A DNA stretch of 64,000 nucleotides from a virus (IMGVR_UViG_3300028048_001497:96001-160000); one strand, 5' to 3'. Numbered from the stretch's first letter, positions 14,001-52,741 are shown. Program-made: numbers and translations. The notes: a model not told the origin generated them from the letters alone.

Positions 14001-16935
14001 AAGACAGATTGGTGGGTTCTTTAATTCTCCATTGGGGAAAGCATATATGAACTCGTTTAAAAGTTCTCCATTTTTAACTATTGGCGGTACATTATTGGGT
14101 GCAGTTGCTTTAAGAAAAGGAGCAGGGTATCTTGTTAAGGGTGGTTTTAATGCGTTAAAAAATGTTGCTATGGGAAAACCATCAGGAATAAGTAAGGCAA
14201 AAGTTTTGGGTGGCGGTGCAGTAGCTCTATTAGGTGCAGGTGGTCTTGCATGGAATCAATATGAAGGATTGCAAGAACAAGCAAATAAATTAGGAGAAAA
14301 ACCACCACAAAACGAATTGGCAGAAATGTTTGCCAATGGTACTGCTAAAATGCAATTAATTATTAATCCTGATAAAAAAGATTATACAATTTTAAAGTAT
14401 GCAAGTTTGTTGGCTTTAGCAGGTGTTCCTATTTATTTGATTTCTCGATTGTTAAATAAAATGTCATTGAAAGGTAAAACAAAATATGCAAATGAATTAA
14501 AACTTTTAAGACATTTATCTAAAAATTCAAATAGACAATTAAAAGCATTTACAAATCCAAGAAAAACACGTAGATTTGCAAAATTAAGACAACAATTAAA
14601 AGAACATAAAAAACTAACTAGAAGAAAGTTTCAAAAATATCAAAGAGAACGTAAATTATATGTGCAACAAATAAAAAAAGCGAGAGCAATACAAAAGCAT
14701 AATCAAATAATTCGAGCAAGAATACAAGCTAAAAGAAAACTTGCTAGAGAAAAACTTGCACAACATTTGAAATGGTCAAAAAGATTTAAATATGCAAAAC
14801 GTAGTGGCTTGTTAGCAATTGGAGCTGCGTTTTTAACAAGTTTATTTGATAAAGATGTAAGAAATAGTACTATTGGTTCTATTGATGCAGGTTTAGCAGG
14901 TGCTTTTATTGGTGGTGCTTTAGGTGGTACAAAAGGAGCTATGCTTGGTGGTGCAATTGGAGCAGGTGCGTCTGAATTGTTACAGACAAATGATGAAAAA
15001 GCAAGTCAAGCATTGGCGAGTGAAATGAAACAAGAAGCAGAAATGCAGAAAGATGATAGTTTAGCAGGTCTAGTTCTTGATTCACCATCTAAAAAACAAA
15101 CAGAAACGCAACAATATAAAGCTAGTCATGCAGATGAACAATCTAAAAAACAATCAAAACAATTTAATCAATATGTTAATTACAAAAAAGCAGAAACAGA
15201 AGCATATAACAAAGAAAAAGAAATGGAAATACAACGTAAAACCATTGATGATTCATCTGAAATGATTAATGCGACAAATGATTTGTATACACAAGAAAAA
15301 CGTCAAAGTTTAGAATCTCATGGTATTCAATGGGGACAAGTTGCAACTCATGAAAAACAAATTTGGCAAACAACTTATGAAAATTTCTTAGCAGTTTATC
15401 AAGATAGAAAAATGGCATTGGAAATGGCTGCGAAAGCACTCATAGCTTGTAAGAGTATGGGTGGCGGTAGTGGAATAAATGGTGCTCCAACATCATTTGT
15501 TGAATATGGTAATAGAATGTTACAAAGTGCTCCACCAGAAATACGTCAAATGATAAAAAATGCGCATGATAAATATCCAAATGTTCCTGAGTTTGTTATT
15601 GCGGCAATTGCCGCACATGAAAGCGGATTTCAAAATGTAATGAATGGTCAAGGCTCTGGTGCAACAGGTATGATGCAAATAATGCCTGGTACAGCCGCAG
15701 GTGTTGGATATGGAGATACAGATAGATTACTTCATGACCCACAATATAATTTAATGGCAGGTACAGCATATGTAAGCACTTTAGCATCTAATTATGATTC
15801 ATGGGCAAAAACTATAGCTGCATATAGTTTAGGTGGTGGAGCGATTGATGGTTTAATTAAAAAATATGGAAATGATTGGTATAGACATTTGGAAGAAGCA
15901 GATGAAGCGTCAGGTGTACCTGGTCAAACAACAAATTATTTAAAAAGTTTGGGATTAATGGATGAAAATGGAAATTTAAAACCTGAAAATGCAAGTTCCG
16001 TATCTATATCTCCTAGTGTGTCTAGTCCTCCAGGCGCAGAATATAGTGGGGATTTAGGTGTTGATTTTTCTCATTTAAGATGGAGTGGATTCGTAGCAGA
16101 AAAAGGATGGGACCATAGTTATGATGCACATGCAAATTCTGCACAATATATTGCCATGGATATTGGTAGATTAACTCCAAAAGCGAAACAAAGATTAAAT
16201 GCATTAACACAATTATATGCAAAATATAGTAATGGTGGAACATTAGAATGGAACGTAGCTACATTAGGGCATGACCCTGGTACGGCACATACTACAGGAA
16301 GAAAAATTGATATTGCTAGTGGTGGAGTTAATGAAGAAGCACTAATTAAAGCAGGTAATGAAGCTCATGTTGGTGTAGATAGAGAAGACCCTTATCACTA
16401 TGATTTGTTATTAGAAGGTACAGGTTCAAATCATTTGGGACCAGTTATAACAGAAAGATTTTCTTGGGATGATGCAAATTCAAATGGTGATTCAGGAGCA
16501 AATCCAAAATTAAATCTTAATTTGAATCTTGAAGATATAAAACCAAAAACATTAAAAGAACAATGGGATGACAGTTGGAAAGCGTATAAAAAAGCAGTTC
16601 ATAATGGTAAAGCAAAGCATGGTGCTCTAGTTAATGGTGTTTATATTGATACATCAAAACCATATCAATCTATTGAAGCAATAGGAAAAGAAATAAGAGA
16701 AAAAAATAGAAAACAATGGGGTGGATTGGAGGATTATGTAAAAGAAAAAGATAAACAAAGTAATTTTAATGGAATAAAACAACAACAAGAAGTATTAGAC
16801 CATGAAGATATTCAAATGAAACTAACCAGAGAACAAATGGATTCAAATCAAATTGTTAATTTTGTTAAGGATGTTAAAGACGCTTTAAGTGCTTTGTATG
16901 AACCATCAGGCTTTAATGTAGCTTGTGTTGTATAA
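11044..16935 (+). CDS. Tape-measure-like protein 2 (1963 aa) with lytic transglycosylase and putative M15-like peptidase domains
   Basis: Core paralogous to protein 1. SLT motifs AIAAHESG, GMMQIMPGTA, AAYSLG. Hx6D (HTTGRKID) with a downstream HYD. Confidence 0.8.
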   Translation: MDYTEKLQQKTSIDKKIAEISDGVRMALNEKQALVTEFLSNEDNLGKNVKKEFEGFGDTINKLSTILNVFAKLQQSSQSGFIANNVKMQEDFLSSLRTIQDMIKNDENLKHTLISVQTGDGKKRQVFRLINNFGNMIDEFQNETDISKLQSLPLLNNFDLSTIGSEDLKHIYEAYQSPNQIVDVNGTTKTLFDLVNNQYVNKISDIIERATHQVKYAKEETHKTSNQILLELVNQVKDEKFSGKTEKEQKEIINQLFRLKSYADKVVEEYSQTPIDTNQGNYDKINQFIRLAKDIQKELDEQQEEEENKKKTDVDKFNNIQGFIANFFSTIYDEETKGTVTDLNALNEVLTQGSFRGKINNLADEMNYANTSINDDNKGKKEKYDAIIQQQRTQVATKTSFDNKALTDISSYLKINPTDNDLFDVSNAQFANVVDNVRRKNVAFNNLTKDFFGNTSLTFRANENSSLLKPMMVGAYDVTKANREMLSQVSTNPISYALFTNDEDKQKLQELSQTVHQTVDKLNKILFAYSNLEQKPNEYYKLKDEKEALELQLHHIDDLQQSLNGFADTLRYLRIFKDKMLGLLAGGLSFLGIGAILHPLQMLHDVTEQAKQNGQMRYNIALTDTAFGANPSQSNIYDLSYYAPSHYFMATYGQIPYQTVSEMYRGFQSSIGGQYGNGPEANRRDMAWLSKNLVPDKVLLNVDSGNLQSFMKTFYRDMRMSAQDATIKLRSLETFAQNNGIPVNNLLQAFNSSNEAMRQLGMNQEKYLDAMTSLIGVNNMRMEDANALVQQTAHNTGTFAEDWSRNMFWGLWKNPEKSSFDVLLSGYKSHDRNGKPIDSYYDNLIDRMFAEQDFFGSRFGGIHTTMGQVSAFNKILEQGYTIKQAQEIVQLKEEGRNEELKEKLKGWDKLKNDPMALPHTTQEYTAQLHQAGEQLSEFTKIQATYKQFINNISFLLETTMSKELEIGLKALEKIIDTFTSVMVEIIRQIGGFFNSPLGKAYMNSFKSSPFLTIGGTLLGAVALRKGAGYLVKGGFNALKNVAMGKPSGISKAKVLGGGAVALLGAGGLAWNQYEGLQEQANKLGEKPPQNELAEMFANGTAKMQLIINPDKKDYTILKYASLLALAGVPIYLISRLLNKMSLKGKTKYANELKLLRHLSKNSNRQLKAFTNPRKTRRFAKLRQQLKEHKKLTRRKFQKYQRERKLYVQQIKKARAIQKHNQIIRARIQAKRKLAREKLAQHLKWSKRFKYAKRSGLLAIGAAFLTSLFDKDVRNSTIGSIDAGLAGAFIGGALGGTKGAMLGGAIGAGASELLQTNDEKASQALASEMKQEAEMQKDDSLAGLVLDSPSKKQTETQQYKASHADEQSKKQSKQFNQYVNYKKAETEAYNKEKEMEIQRKTIDDSSEMINATNDLYTQEKRQSLESHGIQWGQVATHEKQIWQTTYENFLAVYQDRKMALEMAAKALIACKSMGGGSGINGAPTSFVEYGNRMLQSAPPEIRQMIKNAHDKYPNVPEFVIAAIAAHESGFQNVMNGQGSGATGMMQIMPGTAAGVGYGDTDRLLHDPQYNLMAGTAYVSTLASNYDSWAKTIAAYSLGGGAIDGLIKKYGNDWYRHLEEADEASGVPGQTTNYLKSLGLMDENGNLKPENASSVSISPSVSSPPGAEYSGDLGVDFSHLRWSGFVAEKGWDHSYDAHANSAQYIAMDIGRLTPKAKQRLNALTQLYAKYSNGGTLEWNVATLGHDPGTAHTTGRKIDIASGGVNEEALIKAGNEAHVGVDREDPYHYDLLLEGTGSNHLGPVITERFSWDDANSNGDSGANPKLNLNLNLEDIKPKTLKEQWDDSWKAYKKAVHNGKAKHGALVNGVYIDTSKPYQSIEAIGKEIREKNRKQWGGLEDYVKEKDKQSNFNGIKQQQEVLDHEDIQMKLTREQMDSNQIVNFVKDVKDALSALYEPSGFNVACVV

Positions 16936-16944
16936 AAATTTTAT

Positions 16945-17319
16945 CGTAAGATAAGACCCCCACTTCTAAGCTACGAGGTAGCCGTTAGGCTACCGAGTAA
17001 CGAAAGTGGGGGATGACTAATACTAACTCTTGACTATTTTTACAAATAGTGATACAATTAAATCAAAGGAGGTAAAACAAAATGCTAAAAGCGTACAAAT
17101 TCAAATATCTTGAATGAAGGTAAAAGGCTACTAAAAGTAGCCTAAACCATATAAAAACTGTACCGTAGGGCTTACGGAATCAGTATAAAACTAAGCCTAT
17201 GGAGATTGTGTAAGACGTAAAAATGTATGGCTACGCCATACCTCATGCGGTTTCACCGCATACGCTACGGTCTGAGAAGTAGGAATCCCCCCACCTCTTT
17301 AGGTGGGGGAGGATGTCAA
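16945..17319 (+). mobile_element. Non-autonomous IS200/IS605 mini-element copy A (tnpB deleted, omega-RNA retained)
   Basis: 375 bp, preceded by TTTAT, ends GTCAA. Terminal hairpins, internal promoter 17030-17058, tnpB remnants. Near-identical to 47544..47918. Confidence 0.9.
17082..17145 (+). pseudogene. tnpB: tnpB remnant: N-terminus MLKAYKF joined out of frame to C-terminus NILNEGKRLLKVA*
   Basis: SD AGGAGG. Both peptide fragments are typical TnpB termini. Confidence 0.8.
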
Positions 17320-17404
17320 TTGATATAATATTTCCAATAAAATTATCTATATTTTAATTAGATGATAAAAATTTTTCATAATAGGAAGGATTTGACATAA
17401 TATT

Positions 17405-20900: not shown

Positions 20901-23900
20901 AACATCCATTTTTAACATTGGCAGGTGGTTTGGTAGGATGGTCATTATTAAAAAATGGTGCTAAACACGTTTTTAATTTTGCAAAAGAAAAAGCATTTGG
21001 TCATTGGAATGATGTAAAACATAAAGATGTAACAGACGAAGTTAAAGAAACTACACCGTCTGAAACAAAAACATTAAAAGAAGAAACCCCAAAATTAAAC
21101 AATAATAAAGGTTTCTTTAATAATATGAAATCCAGATTAGCGGATTGGAAACCAAAGTCATTTAATAGTAAATCATTATCTAGTTTAACAAAGAAAATCC
21201 CACATAAGGGATTGATGGGTGTTGTTGGAACAGGTATGACATTAGGGGCTATGTTATTGGGAAGTTCTTCTAGTGCTTCTGCAAATCCTTCTGAACAGGG
21301 GGACGAGAATCAATCAGAAGAACAAGATGATGAACAAAGCATAAATTCTATGTATATTATGTTCAAAACTGGTAATTCAAAAGTTACTTTCTATAACAAA
21401 GACGGTAAATTAATTGATGTAACAGGAAGAACAGGCATTGAATCGTGGTTAATGCAAAATGGATTTAGTTTGTTTAGTGCATTAACTGTTGCTACTGCTG
21501 CAGGTGCTAGTGGAAAATTTGCATATGACAAACTTAAACAGTTTAAAGAAGCAAAATTTCCAAAATTTCCTAGTGTAAAAATGCCAAAAGAAATATCTGA
21601 AAAAGATATACAAAATACAGAAAAATTAGCTAATCCATCAACAAAACCATCAATGCTAGATGCAACTCTTACTTTTTTGGGTTTAAAACCGGGTTCTGAA
21701 AAAGGTAAACCAAAAGGAAAAGAAAAATTATCTGAAAAAGAAAAAGTACCAAAAGAAAGTAATTGGTCTAAATGGGGTGGAAGATTATTTAATTTCCTTA
21801 CTGTTGCTGGTTCAGTTGGTAGTGAATTATTATCTGATGATGATAGAACAACAGGACAAAAAGTTGTAGCAGGTGGAATAGAAGCAGGTACGGAATTAGC
21901 TACATATAAAGTTTTGGATAAAACAGTAGGTAGAATACCGTATATTGGCAAACCATTAGCTTTATTATTGCCTTTTGCTGATTCTTTATCAGGTACTAAT
22001 ATAATGTCTAAAATATCAGAAAAAGCAAAGGCATTTGCAGGTGTACAGGCTAAATATAAATCTGGTAATGAAATGTTCCTTGATGCAATGAATAATCAAA
22101 CAGGAATGACAGGTGCAAGTTTTGAGAAATTAATTCATTCTGAAACTGCGCAAGGTAATTATTTTAGAAGTTATTTATCTGCAAACGGTATTGAATATGA
22201 CAAATTAAATGAACAAGAAAAATTATTCTTTAAATTGCAGATGGATGAATTAGCATTTGTGCAACAAAGTGTTGCTAAAGTTCTTGCATTAGCTATTATT
22301 GCATTAAAAAATGCACAAATATCAGGTAATTTTAATTTAAATGATGATGACGATTCTATCTTTAAAAAAGATGGAAAGAAATTAAAAGATGATATTATTC
22401 AAAAAATAAAACAAGATGCTCAAGATTCATTTCCAGAAGGTGGTCATGATTTTGAGAATATTAATCAAGCTGCACATTTTGTAAAATATGGTCAACGTTT
22501 ATATGAAAAATTAAACGATGAAGGGTATGATTCTGAAAAATTAAATCAATTAGCAAGTGCGATTACTTATGCTAAATATAGCGTTTGGGCTATGAATGGT
22601 TTTCAAGATTATGATTTGGATTATTATGGAACAACATGGACAATTACGAACCCATATGAAGATGATTCTTCTGATAGAACTGAAAGCGAAGATATTGCAG
22701 ATACCACCTATTCTGGAGGTATAACACCGGTACTTAAAGAAATTTGGGATAGGTGTCATGGAAAATCTTCGGAAGAAATATCTCGTGAACAAGCTCAAAA
22801 AATTAAAGAAGATTTACAAGAACAGTATGGCGAAACAATTGCAGAACAAATATCAAGTGGATATAATAATTTAATTTTTGCTGGTTGGGTTGGTCCTGTA
22901 AAAAAACAATATATGACTGAATATGCACAAGAAAAAATGGAAAATCCTGATAATATGGAAGATGATACACAACAAAATTCAAATCAAGCTCCAGATTTTT
23001 CAAATGCGAATGCTGGAGCATATGCAAGTATGGTAGAACAAGCTAAAATGATTTCTCAATTAACTGGTTTACCAGCAGATATAATATTTGCGCAATTAGC
23101 ATTTGAAACAGGTCAAAATCCATCTGATATGGCATATTCTGATAAAATTCATAATTATGGTGGGACTACTGTTGATATGGGGCATGGAAAAAATGATAGT
23201 GGCTTTGGTATTTATGTAAACAATAAAGAGGGCGCAGAAGCATATGTAAAAGGTACAGTCCCAGTTAGAGACCAATTACCACAATTAAAGGAAGCAATCG
23301 CACAAGGCGATTTGAAAAAATATGTACATTTATTAAAATATGGTATGGAAGAGTCTGGTAAAGGAAATTATCAATATTTTACTGGCGATGAAAATGAATA
23401 TTTAAATGGTATAATGTCTTATTTATCATTAGCTCATAAATTAGGATTGAATGGTGTAACACCTAATGGTACATTTAATTTTTCAAATTATACTCCTAGA
23501 ACTTTAAAAGAACAAAGTGATAAAGCATGGGAAGATTATAGAAAAGCAGTTGGGAATGGAAAAAAAATAAGCGGTTATTTGGTCAATGGTATTTACATTG
23601 ATACAAGTAGGCAATATCAATCTGTTGAAGAACAAGGTAAAAAATTACGTGAAGCTATGAGGGATGGTTCTTATTATACAGACCCACAAAAAGTATATCA
23701 AGAATTAGACGAACTAAACAAGAAAAATGCAAAGAAAATTGTTGAAGATACTAATACTCAAATCAAAAAACAACAAGAAAGTCAAAAACAAATACAAGAA
23801 ATGGCAAAAAAAGAAGCAGATGCAAAAAAACAACAACAGGAACAAGAAAATAAAGATAAGACTGTTTGTAGTTTGTCTGTTATGGGTACATTAAAACAAG

Positions 23901-43751: not shown

Positions 43752-43768
43752 TACAAAACAATATACAA

Positions 43769-43800
43769 AAAAGAGAGAATAACAAATTCTCTCTTTTTTT
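43769..43800 (+). terminator. Intrinsic terminator
   Basis: AAGAGAGAAT...ATTCTCTCTT followed by a T-tract. Confidence 0.75.
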
Positions 43801-43885
43801 AATTTTTTTGTTTTGCGATAAAAGAATTGTATATATCTATTTAAATATTAGATGATAAAATTTTTCTAAAAGGAGAGGAAATACT

Positions 43886-47521: not shown

Positions 47522-47543
47522 TTGTTGACAAAACAGTTTTTAT

Positions 47544-47918
47544 CGTAAGAGAATACCCCCCCACTTCTAAGCTACGAGGTAGCCGTTAGGCTACCGAGTA
47601 ACGAAAGTGGGGGATGACTAATACTAACTCTTGACTATTTTCGCAAATAGTGATACAATTAAATCAAAGGAGGTAAAACAAAATGCTAAAAGCATACAAA
47701 TTCAAATATCTTGAAAGAGGGTAAAAGGCTACTTTTGGTAGCCTAAACCATAAAAAACTGTACCGTAGGGCTTACGGAATCAGTATAAAACTAAGCCTAT
47801 GGAGATTGTGTAAGACGTAAAAAGGTATGGCTACGCCATACCTCATGCGGTTTCACCGCATACGCTACGGTCTGAGAAGTAGGAATCCCCCACCTCTTTA
47901 GGTGGGGGAGGATGTCAA
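47544..47918 (+). mobile_element. Non-autonomous IS200/IS605 mini-element copy B
   Basis: 375 bp, preceded by TTTAT, ends GTCAA, same tnpB deletion junction as copy A. Confidence 0.9.
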
Positions 47919-48059
47919 CCTATATAATAAAGATACTATAAAATGTATTATTCAGGACTAATCGTTAAACATCCAAAAACATACGCAAGTATGTTTAAAT
48001 GTGAATAAAATACACTTTTGTACACATTTGTATATGTTTTTAGAAGGAGGATAAGAATT

Positions 48060-48317
48060 ATGGCTTTTGCAGATAATAACAATTCACTCTATGAAAATTC
48101 AATGAAGCAGTCAGATGTCAAGGAAACAAAGTTTTCTCTCCTAGAAAACAAGAAAAGTGGTAAGCTAACTGCAAGTATTCGTGACTTCAAACATACAGAA
48201 GGGTATGATGGTCCTACTCGTAATGGTATGATGCTACAGATGAATACAGTAGAAGATGTAGAGAAATATCAGAAAGCATTTAATGACTTCTTTGAAAAAG
48301 TTAAAGAGTTTTTCTGA
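48060..48317 (+). CDS. PC4-like single-stranded DNA-binding protein
   Basis: SIRDF...GPTRNGMML resembles the PC4 DIREY...PTKKGISL motif. SD AGGAGG before ATG 48060. Confidence 0.6.
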   Translation: MAFADNNNSLYENSMKQSDVKETKFSLLENKKSGKLTASIRDFKHTEGYDGPTRNGMMLQMNTVEDVEKYQKAFNDFFEKVKEFF

Positions 48318-48373
48318 AATATTGAGGTCAAAGGCAATTTGCTTTTGACCTTTTCTATTTAAGGGGTTCTAAT

Positions 48374-48751
48374 ATGCCTAGACGTAAATTAACAGAAGAA
48401 GAAAAAAGACAAAAATGGAAAAAACAAATGTGTGAAAAAATCCTTAATAATGAAGAATTAACGATTACACAAGTTGCTAAATTAGTTCAAAAGAAATCTG
48501 TTACTATTCGCAAGTGGGAACAGTTAGGAATTGTGCATAAGCCTAGGATTGTAAATAAAGTCCGTAGATATAATGTAAAAGAATTATGCACTTTTATGCA
48601 TGATTTGTTGCAGTATAATTGGACATATAAAACAATAGATATGGAAATGATACAACAGATAGCGGATTATTTGGATTCCATTATTGCATTACAACCAAAG
48701 AAACGTATTATTAAAAAAGACCCATATTCTTTCGATGGGGATTTGTATTGA
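48374..48751 (+). CDS. MerR/excisionase-type HTH DNA-binding protein
   Basis: LTITQVAKLVQKKSVTIRKWEQLG...VRRY. Confidence 0.75.
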   Translation: MPRRKLTEEEKRQKWKKQMCEKILNNEELTITQVAKLVQKKSVTIRKWEQLGIVHKPRIVNKVRRYNVKELCTFMHDLLQYNWTYKTIDMEMIQQIADYLDSIIALQPKKRIIKKDPYSFDGDLY

Positions 48752-48761
48752 GGTGAATAAG

Positions 48762-50651
48762 GTGGTACAACTTGATTTAGATAATGTATATCTAAAAATC
48801 ACAGGATTGACAAAAGAACAAGAAATTAAATTATGGAATGAATTGTCGTTCGGTATTCAAATTTATGGTGTACCTGAAATCAGGTATCGTCATTTGTTCA
48901 ATCGTAAGACAAAAAAGACATACGCAGGATTATTTGATTATGTCAAAGACTTCTTTGATACGAACGAGATAGATTATAAATTAAATGATAATCGTGTAAA
49001 GCCTGAACAAAATGCTAATTTTCAATTGGTAGATTATATTGATAGTGATAAAAAAGTTCCTTTAAAATTAAGACCTTATCAACAGGATATTGTTGATAAG
49101 TGCAGAGAACGTGAGGTAATACAAGCCTGTACTGGAGCGGGAAAAACCTTAATGATGGCTGCTTGTATTGCTAAATTCAATGTAAAACCTGTATGTATTT
49201 TTGCAGATAAAATTGGATTATGTATGCAATTAAAACAAGAAATGGAAAAGTTTCTTGGAGTAGAAGTTGGTTTGGTTGGTGATGGGGTAGAAGATTATAA
49301 AGACATTACTGTAATTTCTACACAATCAGCAGATGATAACTATATCAAAGACGCAAAAATGTGTTTGTGGGATGAATGTTTGCCATATGATACAGAAATT
49401 TTGTTAGAAAATAGAACCTGTATGAAAATTGGTGACATTGTAAAACAAAAACAAATGGTAAATGTATGGACATATAATGTTTATACACATCAATTTGAAG
49501 TCAAACCAATTATTGACTTTGGCGTTACAGATATTGGAACAAAGAAAATATTAAAGTTAAATATTAAACGTAATGATGGAAAAAATATTGTTTTACATTG
49601 TACAGATAATCATAAAGTTTTTATTAAAAACAAAAATGATTATGTTCGAGCAGATTGTTTAAATATTGGCGATAAAGTTGTTGTTGGAACAGTTGAAGCA
49701 TTAATATTGAAACAATATGAAGGTACGATTGACAATATTGAAGTAGATAATTCTAATGCAGAGAATTATGTATATGATTTAACTGTTGCAGACAATCATA
49801 ATTTTATTGCTAACGGTGTATTGGTATCAAATTGTCACCATATACCTGCCCAGACAATTACTACAATTGCAAATAAATGTAAAAATGCTTATTATAGAAT
49901 TGGTGTATCGGCAACACCTTGGCGTGATGCAGGTGATGATTTGCTTATCGAAGCAGTTCTTAATAAGAAAAAAGACGCAGTTATTACCGCTTCTATGTTA
50001 ATTGAAAAGGGATATTTGGTAAAACCAGAAATTTATTTTGTTCCAATAAAGCAGGTTTTTAAAGGGAAAAATTATCAAGATATATACAATAAAGCTATCG
50101 TGGAAAATACAGATAGAAATAAAATTGTAGCTAAAATTGCTTACAATATGTATATACGTGATAAACACATCTTAGTTTTATATAAAAATATTAAGCACGG
50201 AGAAATTTTACGTGATAGAATTACTAAGAAGATTGGTGAAAAAGCTAAATCATTTACTGTTACAAATCCTAAAAATAATCAAGATGTAACCATTCGTGTA
50301 CATAATGTTGAAATGTTGTCTGGTAACGATGATACATTAAAACGTCTTGCGGTATTTAAAGCAGTTAAAGAAGGATTTTGCCGTTGTTTAATTGCATCAA
50401 CGATTGCAGATGAAGGATTAGATTTGCCAATTCTTGATACATTGATTTTGGCAGGTGGAGGAAAATCTTCTACTAGGGCTTTTCAACGTATCGGTCGTGT
50501 GATAAGATTATATAAAGGAAAAACAAAAGGAATAGTATTTGATTTTACGGATTATACGCCTATGTTGCGTAGACATTCTCGTAATCGTCAGAAATATTAT
50601 TCACAAGAACCGTTATGGGACATCCATAAATTCAATGTAAATCCTGATTAA
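48762..50651 (+). CDS. SF2 DExH helicase (UvsW/XPB-like) with intein
   Basis: LRPYQ, TGAGKT, DE[intein]CHH, SATP, EGLDLP, QRIGRVIR. GTG start after GAGGTGA. Confidence 0.9.
   Translation: MVQLDLDNVYLKITGLTKEQEIKLWNELSFGIQIYGVPEIRYRHLFNRKTKKTYAGLFDYVKDFFDTNEIDYKLNDNRVKPEQNANFQLVDYIDSDKKVPLKLRPYQQDIVDKCREREVIQACTGAGKTLMMAACIAKFNVKPVCIFADKIGLCMQLKQEMEKFLGVEVGLVGDGVEDYKDITVISTQSADDNYIKDAKMCLWDECLPYDTEILLENRTCMKIGDIVKQKQMVNVWTYNVYTHQFEVKPIIDFGVTDIGTKKILKLNIKRNDGKNIVLHCTDNHKVFIKNKNDYVRADCLNIGDKVVVGTVEALILKQYEGTIDNIEVDNSNAENYVYDLTVADNHNFIANGVLVSNCHHIPAQTITTIANKCKNAYYRIGVSATPWRDAGDDLLIEAVLNKKKDAVITASMLIEKGYLVKPEIYFVPIKQVFKGKNYQDIYNKAIVENTDRNKIVAKIAYNMYIRDKHILVLYKNIKHGEILRDRITKKIGEKAKSFTVTNPKNNQDVTIRVHNVEMLSGNDDTLKRLAVFKAVKEGFCRCLIASTIADEGLDLPILDTLILAGGGKSSTRAFQRIGRVIRLYKGKTKGIVFDFTDYTPMLRRHSRNRQKYYSQEPLWDIHKFNVNPD
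49377..49832 (+). mobile_element. Mini-intein (152 aa, no endonuclease)
   Basis: CLPYDTEI..., block B CTDNHKV, ends VYDLTVADNHNFIANGVLVSN followed by Cys. Confidence 0.93.
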
Positions 50652-50670
50652 GATTTGGAGTGAGAACGAT

Positions 50671-51921
50671 ATGACTCAGAATGATTCTGTTTGCTTGTTC
50701 TGTGGCAAACAATTCAAATCGGCAATAGCTATGAAGAATCATATTCAAAAGACAGAAGAACCTAAGCATCAACTTTTGTCTTTTGTGTACAACGAGTTAA
50801 AAATCAAATGTAAAGAATTAAATTTATATGTTGATAAATATCGTGATTTTTTTGATAAGGTGACAGAAGAAACTCTTTCGGTGAGTAAAGAGAAATTATT
50901 GAATAAAATCAAAGCAGATATTCAATTAGAAAAAGATAAAAAACTTGCAGAGAAGCAAAAAGAAAAAGAACAGAGAGTTTTGCAAAGACATTTAAATGAT
51001 ATGAAACGTCTTGCAGAATTAGAAGAAGAACGAAACATAAAAAAACGTTTGGAAAAAGACATGTTTAGTTCTATGCCAATAGAAGATAGACCAAAGTCTA
51101 TTGTAGAAGAATTTTATACCATGATACACAGTCGTTGTTATAATTATGCAATTGAGGTGCAATTAGTTAAATCTTTATATACAAAGCAAAAATTTGATGC
51201 TAAAATGGTTCATTTTATTATTGAATATTTGGCTAAAATTGGTTGTCAAAATTTGCGTGGTTTAAATTACAAACTTAATGAAGCAGTTGAATTTAAGCAC
51301 AATATGGATTTAATTAAAGTAGAGAATACAGTTCCACATTTGATTAAATATTTTTATAAACAATCTCATATGAGAATGAATGTAAAAACATTTATGAAAG
51401 AAGTAAATTGTATTCAATCTTCTATGATGGCAAATCAACTTTCTATTCAACAAGTAAAAAATGTTTTGGATGGAATGATTAAAAAAAAGGTTAAAGTTTT
51501 GATTTGGTTCGATAGTTATGTATCAGAGTTTTCTAATATTGAACAATCTATAGACCCGATTCATACTTGTACAAATGAACGCGAAATCAAAATGAACGTA
51601 AAAGAAGTCCTAAAAGGTAATTTGACAGTAGATAAAATTAGCAAACGCATTAAATCCGATTGTATCAAAAAAATTAATCAAATCTTTATGTCAGGGAAAT
51701 TTGATGATAAATATAACTATTTGGAATGGGCATATAAAATTCATCTTCCCTTAACAAAAGAAATGGTTGATTTTGCCAATGAACATAATAAAGAACGTTG
51801 CAGTCGTTTTGACATTTGGGGGCAAAAAATGCTTAGTTCCAATAGTGACGTAATGAAACGCAAATATGATAATGTGATTAACTCGTACAAAGAGTGGTTG
51901 TCAAAACTCCCGAATCTGTAA
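50671..51921 (+). CDS. Hypothetical replication-module protein with N-terminal C2H2-like zinc finger
   Basis: CLFCGKQFKS...NH...H; upstream of the helicase loader. Confidence 0.6.
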   Translation: MTQNDSVCLFCGKQFKSAIAMKNHIQKTEEPKHQLLSFVYNELKIKCKELNLYVDKYRDFFDKVTEETLSVSKEKLLNKIKADIQLEKDKKLAEKQKEKEQRVLQRHLNDMKRLAELEEERNIKKRLEKDMFSSMPIEDRPKSIVEEFYTMIHSRCYNYAIEVQLVKSLYTKQKFDAKMVHFIIEYLAKIGCQNLRGLNYKLNEAVEFKHNMDLIKVENTVPHLIKYFYKQSHMRMNVKTFMKEVNCIQSSMMANQLSIQQVKNVLDGMIKKKVKVLIWFDSYVSEFSNIEQSIDPIHTCTNEREIKMNVKEVLKGNLTVDKISKRIKSDCIKKINQIFMSGKFDDKYNYLEWAYKIHLPLTKEMVDFANEHNKERCSRFDIWGQKMLSSNSDVMKRKYDNVINSYKEWLSKLPNL

Positions 51922-51967
51922 TATAATAGATTCAAAACAATGTTAGATGTAAGGGAGATAAACAACC

Positions 51968-52741
51968 ATGTTACTTACAAAAGAAGAAAAAGACTTAGAA
52001 GAACAGAAAAACCGTAGACGCATTGTGGATAAATGTGAATTGTGTCATGGTACAGGGTTCATTTCTAAGGTAGATGAACATGGGTATGAACAATCATATC
52101 CATGTTCTTGTATTAAGAAAGTAAAACGTAATGTAAAATTACTAGATTGGGGTATTCCTAGAAAGTTCTTGTCTGATAAATGGGATTTGGAGTTTATCAA
52201 AGAAAAAAACTTTTATGAACCTGTGAAAAATTATATTGATAATTTTCAAGATAATTATGATGAAGGTCGGGGATTGTTTTTATATGGCCCACAAGGTAGA
52301 GGAAAAACAACGATTGAAAGTATTATTGCAAAACACGTTGTAGAAAAAATAAACCCTGATTCATTTAAAAAAAGAAGCACATTTAATGTGGCTTTCGCTA
52401 TGTATGATGATTTGGTAAAATGCCAGTTCGATAAAGCAAATCAAGACAAAATGAAAATTTTCATTTATAAGTCTGATTTACTTATTATTGACAATGTTGG
52501 TAACGAGGTTGGTAAGAATGATAATCAATTCTCTCAAAGATTCTTGGAAATGATTTTGAGAAAACGTGATAATGATTGCTTGCCAACGATTATTTCATCA
52601 AATTATACCATAGATGAAATGGGAAAAGAGTATAATAATGATATAAGAGATTTTCTCATTCAAAACAATGAAATTATTAGTGTTTTAGGAGATAACCATC
52701 GAACAGAAAATTATACTCAAAATGACGATTTCGACTTTTGA
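51968..52741 (+). CDS. DnaC/IstB-like AAA+ helicase loader
   Basis: CxxC...CxC, Walker A GPQGRGKT, Walker B LLIIDNVG, PTIISSN. Confidence 0.85.
   Translation: MLLTKEEKDLEEQKNRRRIVDKCELCHGTGFISKVDEHGYEQSYPCSCIKKVKRNVKLLDWGIPRKFLSDKWDLEFIKEKNFYEPVKNYIDNFQDNYDEGRGLFLYGPQGRGKTTIESIIAKHVVEKINPDSFKKRSTFNVAFAMYDDLVKCQFDKANQDKMKIFIYKSDLLIIDNVGNEVGKNDNQFSQRFLEMILRKRDNDCLPTIISSNYTIDEMGKEYNNDIRDFLIQNNEIISVLGDNHRTENYTQNDDFDF

Follow-up and report, generated by a model that had tools for sequence, protein, structure and literature searches.

A 375-bp derivative of an IS605-family transposon, which we call copy B, inserted into an ancestral consensus promoter of the sigma-70/SigA type in a phage genome, as comparison with a related phage shows, and the family to which it belongs is over-represented in strong promoters across related phages, a bias that has statistical support. 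The stretch of DNA that we analysed, the window, is 64,000 nucleotides long and corresponds to bases 96001-160000 of a 174,540-bp IMG/VR virus record (G000). CheckV puts the completeness of the record at 35%, and its ends are of the linear class; G+C in the window is about 31%. Coordinates below are window positions on the plus strand unless another source is named. Our explanation as a whole has three parts: a PATE-like mini-element split the ancestral promoter, its guide RNA would be made for a TnpB system that works in trans, and the promoter excess arose by targeting or by selection. Taken together, we consider these likely to be right.

The split promoter lies directly 3′ of the stop codon of a gene for a 1211-aa protein and ahead of a replication module. 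Its -35 hexamer, TTGACA (47525-47530), is followed by aaacagtttttat (47531-47543), the final five bases of which are TTTAT (47539-47543). Comparison of flanks identifies this pentamer, which abuts the left end of the element, as the target or transposon-adjacent motif (TAM). Copy B occupies 47544-47918, has the termini CGTAAGAG...GGATGTCAA and is 96% identical to a second mini-element in the window, copy A. To its right come ccta (47919-47922) and the -10 hexamer TATAAT (47923-47928). Deleting 47544-47918 in silico joins TTGACAAAACAGTTTTTAT to CCTATATAATAAAG and leaves TTGACA, a 17-nt spacer and TATAAT. The initial annotation had pointed out that removal of the element would restore a perfect promoter. 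This can be read directly from the sequence, and the uninterrupted promoter turns up in a relative.

That relative is G004 (IMGVR_UViG_3300032007_001757), which we located through an 85%-identical homologue of the 1211-aa protein. Between homologues of the same two genes it carries TTGACA-aattttgatttatctta-TATAAT (L053 6144-6172). The order there is the stop codon of the 1211-aa homologue, aaaatatg, TTGACA, aattttgatttatctta, TATAAT, 44 nt and the ATG of a homologue of the 85-aa ORF that opens the replication module. The spacer is again 17 nt, with TTTAT at the same offset as at the copy B site. The two phages agree in every base of both hexamers but not in the spacer, which has diverged; this is the mark of a functional promoter. 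Since G004 carries the locus uninterrupted and with a perfect promoter, copy B truly inserted into a promoter that existed before it. Neither the A nor the B site shows a target duplication relative to the empty alleles of G004, which fits integration of the IS200/IS605 kind. An exact search of IMG/VR for the reconstructed copy B empty junction gave no match.

Copy A (16945-17319, 375 bp) lies between two tape-measure-like genes. Its TAM is at 16940-16944, TGATATAAT lies to its right at 17321-17329, and its flanks are TTTAT on the left and TTGATATAAT on the right, which fits the form TGnTATAAT. The homologous site in G004 is empty (L054, about 1400-1430) and reads aattat/ttcatataataat, the slash here and below marking the insertion point; TATAAT is kept, TG is not. 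Copy A had been described as sitting at an extended -10 box. The TTTAT and the TGnTATAAT are indeed present, but as evidence for a promoter the box alone is weak. TGnTATAAT occurs 22 times on the plus strand of the record and 18 times on the minus strand, with no strand bias, so we treat copy A and a similar insertion in a relative (L028) as the weaker promoter cases. The claim that the predicted guides of both copies contain ATATAATA at positions 4-11 is borne out by their right flanks. We rejected the idea that ATATAATA belongs to the right end of the element, as it is absent from copy C (the full-length copy described below) and from all relatives. We also rejected ectopic homing from copy A to copy B, as the only stretch that the two guides have in common is positions 4-11, and positions 1-3, beside the TAM, differ.

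Two side observations concern the surroundings of these sites. The motif TTAGATGATAAAA(A)TTTTT, at 17358-17370 and at 43848-43860, precedes two gene starts by some 35-45 nt, and G004 has almost the same stretch at each of the two corresponding positions. A regulatory or late-promoter role specific to the phage is possible; a pair of matches alone is not significant, as 17 of 100 shuffles reach two. G004 also holds a lone perfect palindrome with an 18-bp stem, TTGACATCCTCCCCCACC-tcttta-GGTGGGGGAGGATGTCAA (L005 4733-4779, G004 about 61026-67), built from the right-end hairpin of the element and perhaps a right-end relic. At the corresponding place in the window, around 43765-43800 and ahead of the 1211-aa gene, stands a hairpin of the common terminator-like sort. 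We had considered this solo hairpin as the homologue of the copy A site and discarded the idea: it lies upstream of the homologue of the 1211-aa gene instead.

What kind of element is this? The halves of the minis match the two ends of a full-length copy of 1424 bp with 94-97% identity, and the 375-bp blocks are thus internal-deletion derivatives of an IS605-family element that carries tnpB only. On this comparison copy B is a non-autonomous, tnpB-deleted derivative of a tnpB-only, IS1341-like element, and is PATE-like. From left to right, it consists of an imperfect palindrome, CCCCCCCACTT...AAGTGGGGG (47556-47613), conserved in relatives; a promoter found by promoter scan, TTGACT, a 17-nt spacer and TACAAT with an upstream TG (47631-47659); a residual ORF of 13 codons, MLKAYKFKYLERG* (47683-47724), in which comparison with full-length tnpB shows the start of the gene fused to its 3′ end; the retained tnpB 3′ end with the omegaRNA scaffold and the right end (47720-47918); and, within that last part, the right-end hairpin (47887-47908). 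The element finishes in a terminal GTCAA. The minis contain no complete protein gene, only the 13-codon stub, ahead of which the ribosome-binding site is also retained. No inverted-repeat pairs were reported at the ends of the element; both ends have subterminal imperfect palindromes. On the plus strand we found no terminator between 47659 and 47918.

An RNAalifold consensus of the retained 3′ part, built from 16 copies, has 55 pairs, of which 13 show compensatory double changes. Such covariation fits an omegaRNA scaffold. The minimal region common to every mini lineage starts at 47752. An Rfam search at the gathering threshold returned no family for the element, and searches of INPHARED phages with the element and with the locus gave nothing useful. 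An exact scan of genome contigs with a conserved 22-mer found copies in Thermoanaerobacterium only.

The full-length copy, copy C (L003), is 1424 bp long and came from a search of the whole record. It lies on the minus strand at G000 91929-93352, 2.6-4.1 kb before the window. It encodes an intact TnpB of 370 aa with the domains PF01385 (OrfB_IS605), PF07282 (Cas12f1-like TNB) and PF12323 (HTH_OrfB_IS605), which matches the TnpB of ISDra2 (PDB 8bf8) with E = 9e-84. The residues aligned to D191, E278 and D361 of ISDra2 TnpB are D, E and D, and the CxxC...CxxC zinc finger is conserved. The TAM of copy C is TTAAA, not TTTAT, and the copy stands antisense to phage genes and not at a promoter, where two tandem, paralogous Cys-rich genes meet. 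With the element in place the upstream ORF there runs 44 codons into it; with the element removed the ORF ends ...EEF* two codons past the junction, and so we dropped the idea that copy C interrupts a gene in frame.

No Y1 TnpA (PF01797) is encoded in the 174.5-kb record, which is 35% complete by CheckV. G004 and a second relative, the 281-kb phage G006, do have TnpA genes, which lie inside a different IS605-type element with other hairpins. That element is GC-richer and comprises a Y1 TnpA of 159 aa and, behind it, an ORF longer than 500 aa (L056 1150-3363, with G004 15120-15482; L057, with G006 23507-23869). Its left end holds a perfect TTGACA-17-TATAAT of its own.

We recovered at least 16 further distinct insertions of the copy A-C family in viral and metagenome contigs, by scanning for exact words (the 22-mer plus two more conserved blocks), by a protein search with TnpB and by searching complete virus records. 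TTTAT adjoins the left end in 10 of 13 readable sites (A, B, L006, L008, L017, L018, L020, L022, L028 and L052); the exceptions are GTTAT (L019), ATTAT (L007) and the TTAAA of copy C. The minis fall into three independent deletions. One junction, at 47702/47703 in copy B, is common to A, B, L018 and L022, which occupy four different genomic sites; a second is found in L020 and L028, and a third in L017. The identical junction at four different sites tells us that the minis are themselves mobile. All three deletions keep the promoter and the scaffold.

How the deletions arose can be glimpsed from their edges. Short direct repeats flank them (window 47690-47710 compared with tnpB codons 4-7 and the 3′ end in L003): AAGCATA(C)AAAT... 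in the first lineage and AAAG(G/A)AGGTAAAA in the second. This points to slippage or microhomology deletion. On the left flank of the L020 mini is a 17-nt direct duplication, AATGAATAATTTTATCG twice, which takes in the TAM together with the element's first two bases and could have been left by an earlier imprecise event. G006 holds three decay states of the family in one phage (L050, L051 and L052): a mini, its ends of the L007 type, that lies upstream of a tRNA gene; a fossil (L050) with left end and promoter only, located after a tRNA gene and a terminator and in front of a gene; and a fossil with the right end only, which abuts a ribosome-binding site. That L050 keeps just the left end and the promoter before a gene suggests that the promoter of the element may be useful to the phage.

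The case for a promoter bias begins with the promoters of G000. Apart from the restored B site, the record has eight perfect TTGACA-N17-TATAAT sites, all on the plus strand and none on the minus strand; the restored site makes nine. Hexamer counts predict about 0.09 perfect sites per strand by chance, so the eight are real promoters. For a null we removed the three elements, called genes with a crude model of our own making (148 genes, 85% coding) and classified every TTTAT by one fixed rule, with the promoter window running from the start of the -35 box to 10 nt past the -10 box. In this element-free genome one TTTAT lies in a perfect promoter window, whether we count all sites (1/1950), non-coding sites (1/357) or co-oriented sites, meaning those within 150 nt upstream of a plus-strand gene (1/61). 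It is the copy B site. When strong promoters are admitted alongside perfect ones, the counts become 16/1950, 6/357 and 3/61, two of the last three being the A and B sites. In 127 kb of DNA from the relatives, 14 of 1296 TTTAT sites fall in promoter windows.

Set against this, four insertions in four different phages (B, L008, L019 and L020) restore a perfect TTGACA-17-TATAAT when they are removed. The empty site of L020 reads T/TGACA-17-TATAAT, cut inside the -35 box. That of L019, which is a full-length element, reads TTGACA-17-TAT/AAT, cut inside the -10 box, and in L008 a perfect promoter is followed by 8 nt and then the element, at about +2. L028 (TTTAT/TTATAATATGGTATAAT) lies 11 nt upstream of an extended -10 box (TGGTATAAT). 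Leaving out A and B, promoter cases thus number 4 of 16 among the relatives, three perfect and one with a TG-extended -10. Under the most conservative null the binomial probability of at least four in 16 is 0.007; for perfect promoters only, that of at least three in 16 is 0.002, falling to 0.0001 with the looser TAM TTAT. These figures come from 18 sites in total, a home-made gene model and a null drawn mainly from one genome. The initial annotation had staked its promoter bias on what additional copies would show, and in the relatives the bias does replicate.

The plainest rival is that nothing but chance and survivorship is at work: insertion at TTTAT is random, only intergenic insertions survive in a phage so densely packed with genes, intergenic DNA is largely promoter, and no bias for promoters exists. 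Twelve of the 18 sites do lie outside core promoters, intergenic regions are short (median 80 nt), and the promoter observation was picked post hoc. The TTTAT counts tell against it. Only 3 of 61 co-oriented upstream TTTATs lie in promoter windows, two of them the occupied A and B sites. The independent set has 3 of 16 in perfect promoters against 1.6% expected (p = 0.002). And the G000 non-coding segments that contain a perfect promoter offer ten co-oriented TTTATs, of which one, the occupied copy B site, is in the core window. We regard chance as unlikely. In the literature that we searched we found no report of an over-representation of PATE-like insertions at consensus promoters.

Two leading candidates could account for the excess. 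By the first, RNA polymerase on consensus promoters would stall replication forks, and TnpA would integrate there into the lagging-strand template. By the second, selection would do the sorting: the strong outward promoter that the element has to fire for its guide may be harmless only where a strong promoter of like orientation already existed. Both predict that element and promoter point the same way, as they do in all six promoter cases, and the concentration in the core window mildly favours integration preference. IS608 offers the precedent for the first candidate (Ton-Hoang 2010; Lavatine 2016, PMC5027513). Where Tus/Ter or arrays of LacI or TetR stall a fork, it goes into the lagging-strand template; it is also enriched in rrn operons, and the beta clamp is bound by its TnpA. 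RNA polymerase on a consensus promoter would be a plausible roadblock of this kind. Plus-strand GC skew is positive throughout the window which, given the plus orientation of A and B, fits the plus strand being the lagging-strand template.

The initial annotation preferred a different route, in which insertion favours melted promoters, both copies having TATAAT 4 bp downstream. In its full form, TnpA would integrate into the bubble of the RNA polymerase open complex at a fixed 4 bp upstream of TATAAT, and the guides would read -10 boxes. A and B do share the offset TTTAT-N4-TATAAT, integration of IS200/IS605 elements requires single-stranded DNA (PMC5027513), and L019 (TAT/AAT) and L008 (about +2) fall within -11 to +2. 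The TAM and cut site of A and B, though, are at about -21 to -16, outside the -11 to +2 bubble, and L028, 11 nt upstream of the -10, and L020, in the -35 box, are farther away still. A check for TATAAT at +5 found it in none of the 16 other insertions, so the spacing is a property of A and B and not a rule. What survives of the melted-promoter proposal is the excess in strong promoters. The insertion points, which run from the -35 box to about +2, do not fit a melted open complex, and we consider that mechanism very improbable. Stalled-fork targeting or promoter-for-promoter selection fits the range better.

What has the insertion done to the genes downstream? Behind the promoter a Pfam scan shows a replication module (48060-52741) with the 85-aa ORF, a MerR-like HTH protein, an intein-containing ResIII/DEAD helicase, a 416-aa ORF and an IstB/DnaC-like AAA ATPase. 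The intein splicing domain is at residues 240-383 of the helicase (48684-50651). The leader from the -10 box to the first ATG of the module is about 130 nt in the window (47929-48059) as against 44 nt in G004 (L053 6173-6216), and the extra part includes a hairpin, AAACATAC-GCAA-GTATGTTT. The native -35 box has been displaced by 375 bp, and AGGTGG, a poor match, now stands at the -35 position for the displaced -10. With the native -35 so far away, the replication genes are probably driven by the promoter of the element, by read-through from the 1211-aa gene, after which we found no terminator, or by both. The element had been proposed to substitute its own promoter for the one that it broke. 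The promoter is there, TTGACT-17-TACAAT with TG, and nothing on the plus strand terminates it within the element; these two features make the replacement itself plausible.

Our account of how the element is kept follows from the known mechanism of its family. The mini integrated 3′ of the TTTAT located in the 17-nt spacer of the ancestral promoter, and it seems to retain the parts needed to make a guide: left end, tnpB promoter, omegaRNA scaffold and right end. Transcripts from the element promoter (47631-47659) would run through the right end into the flank, TnpB from copy C would load the scaffold of the mini in trans, and the 16-20 nt after 47918 (CCTATATAATAAAGATAC...) would become the guide. 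TnpB takes its guide from the sequence that lies 3′ of the right end (PMC10055086), and on this basis we predict CCTATATAATAAAGATACTA (47919-47938) as both the omegaRNA guide and the empty-site target. The TAM TTTAT and the sequence of the copy B guide would occur together only at the element-free allele. Such an allele, in an excised sister genome or a co-infecting relative, could then be cut and re-converted by homologous recombination, which in a phage corresponds to the "non-restorative homing" of a recent review (PMC13565253). The G004 allele mismatches the copy B guide at positions 2, 12, 15 and 19, and with four mismatches it may escape cutting.

The same parts could in principle make a regulatory device, one in which reversible excision toggles the replication promoter or TnpB and its omegaRNA repress -10 boxes in the manner of a TldR. 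A perfect promoter would indeed re-form upon precise excision, and the guides do contain ATATAATA. TnpB targeting requires a seed match next to the TAM. The A and B guides share an 8-nt core at positions 4-11 and differ at positions 1-3, beside the TAM, so they could not direct binding to other promoters or to -10 boxes in general; the -10 box is in the guide because the element landed there, a by-product of the landing site. Against the switch, no Y1 TnpA is present in the record, 35% complete by CheckV, and an intact TnpB would cut the vacated site and drive re-copying, so that the empty form would not persist as a stable "on" state. Nor does repression fit a TnpB that retains the residues aligned to D191, E278 and D361, since such a TnpB would cleave a restored site and not repress it. 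The family, moreover, behaves as an ordinary proliferating transposon with many sites outside promoters. We give hardly any credence to either form of the device, both of which the initial annotation had floated. Our preferred reading is still guide-directed maintenance of a mini that split a promoter, with targeting or selection behind the excess.

Taken by itself the element is unremarkable, a PATE-like mini with an omegaRNA that derives from a TnpB transposon. The comparative result is the part worth keeping: the empty alleles of G004 and the promoter-restoring insertions in four phages. A bolder reading is that the IS605-family TnpB elements of these gut phages, which are large and AT-rich, are directed to, or uniquely retained at, consensus promoters occupied by RNA polymerase, and bring a replacement promoter with them. 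We hold this tentatively and lean against it. Were it true, single-stranded "peel-and-paste" transposition would have a preference at the level of promoters, plausibly by way of RNA polymerase-stalled forks, the element would drive the downstream operon, and its guide RNA would police the intact promoter allele in competing phages. Should integration preference be the cause of the excess, stalled-fork targeting by IS200/IS605 TnpA would extend to promoters, which would account for the persistence of such elements in phage genomes with little room to spare. Should selection be the cause, the outward guide-RNA promoter of a transposon would dictate where the transposon can live. Under either cause, phage TnpB guides would aim at conserved promoter DNA of rival phages, of relevance to phage-phage competition and to the reading of phage promoters in metagenomes.

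How does all this compare with systems that are already known? We know of no IS200/IS605 member for which targeting by RNA polymerase at the level of promoters has been shown, and what sets the present case apart from the stalled-fork targeting of IS608 is that the targeting proposed here comes from site statistics. TldRs are TnpB-like, nuclease-dead repressors that have lost their nuclease residues and their mobility (PMC10705468). They share with our system a guide RNA complementary to promoter DNA and differ in that the TnpB of copy C has intact catalytic residues, belongs to a multi-copy mobile element and would be served by a guide that matches only its own empty site. The TnpBs of ISDra2 and ISGst2 are RNA-guided homing nucleases of IS605-family elements. 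Copy C TnpB shares the RuvC triad and zinc-finger cysteines with ISDra2 TnpB, from which we predict nuclease activity. TTTAT is the experimentally defined TAM of GstTnpB2 from Geobacillus stearothermophilus (PMC10055086), identical to the motif here, and the right end likewise finishes in a TCAA-type sequence. The full-length copy differs from both ISGst2 and ISDra2 in that it carries tnpB only, and we found no cognate tnpA in the record. PATE were first named in Haloquadratum walsbyi (PMC3119063), and PATE-like elements encode omegaRNAs that TnpB uses in trans (Meers et al. 2023, PMC10055086). Like the PATE-like ISGst elements, the minis have no gene, have subterminal palindromes at both ends, keep the omegaRNA and occur in several copies per genome, and like PATE-like elements they would depend on TnpB and TnpA in trans. 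They stand apart from the ISGst elements in being carried by phages, in three deletion lineages that all keep the tnpB promoter, and in their excess at consensus promoters.
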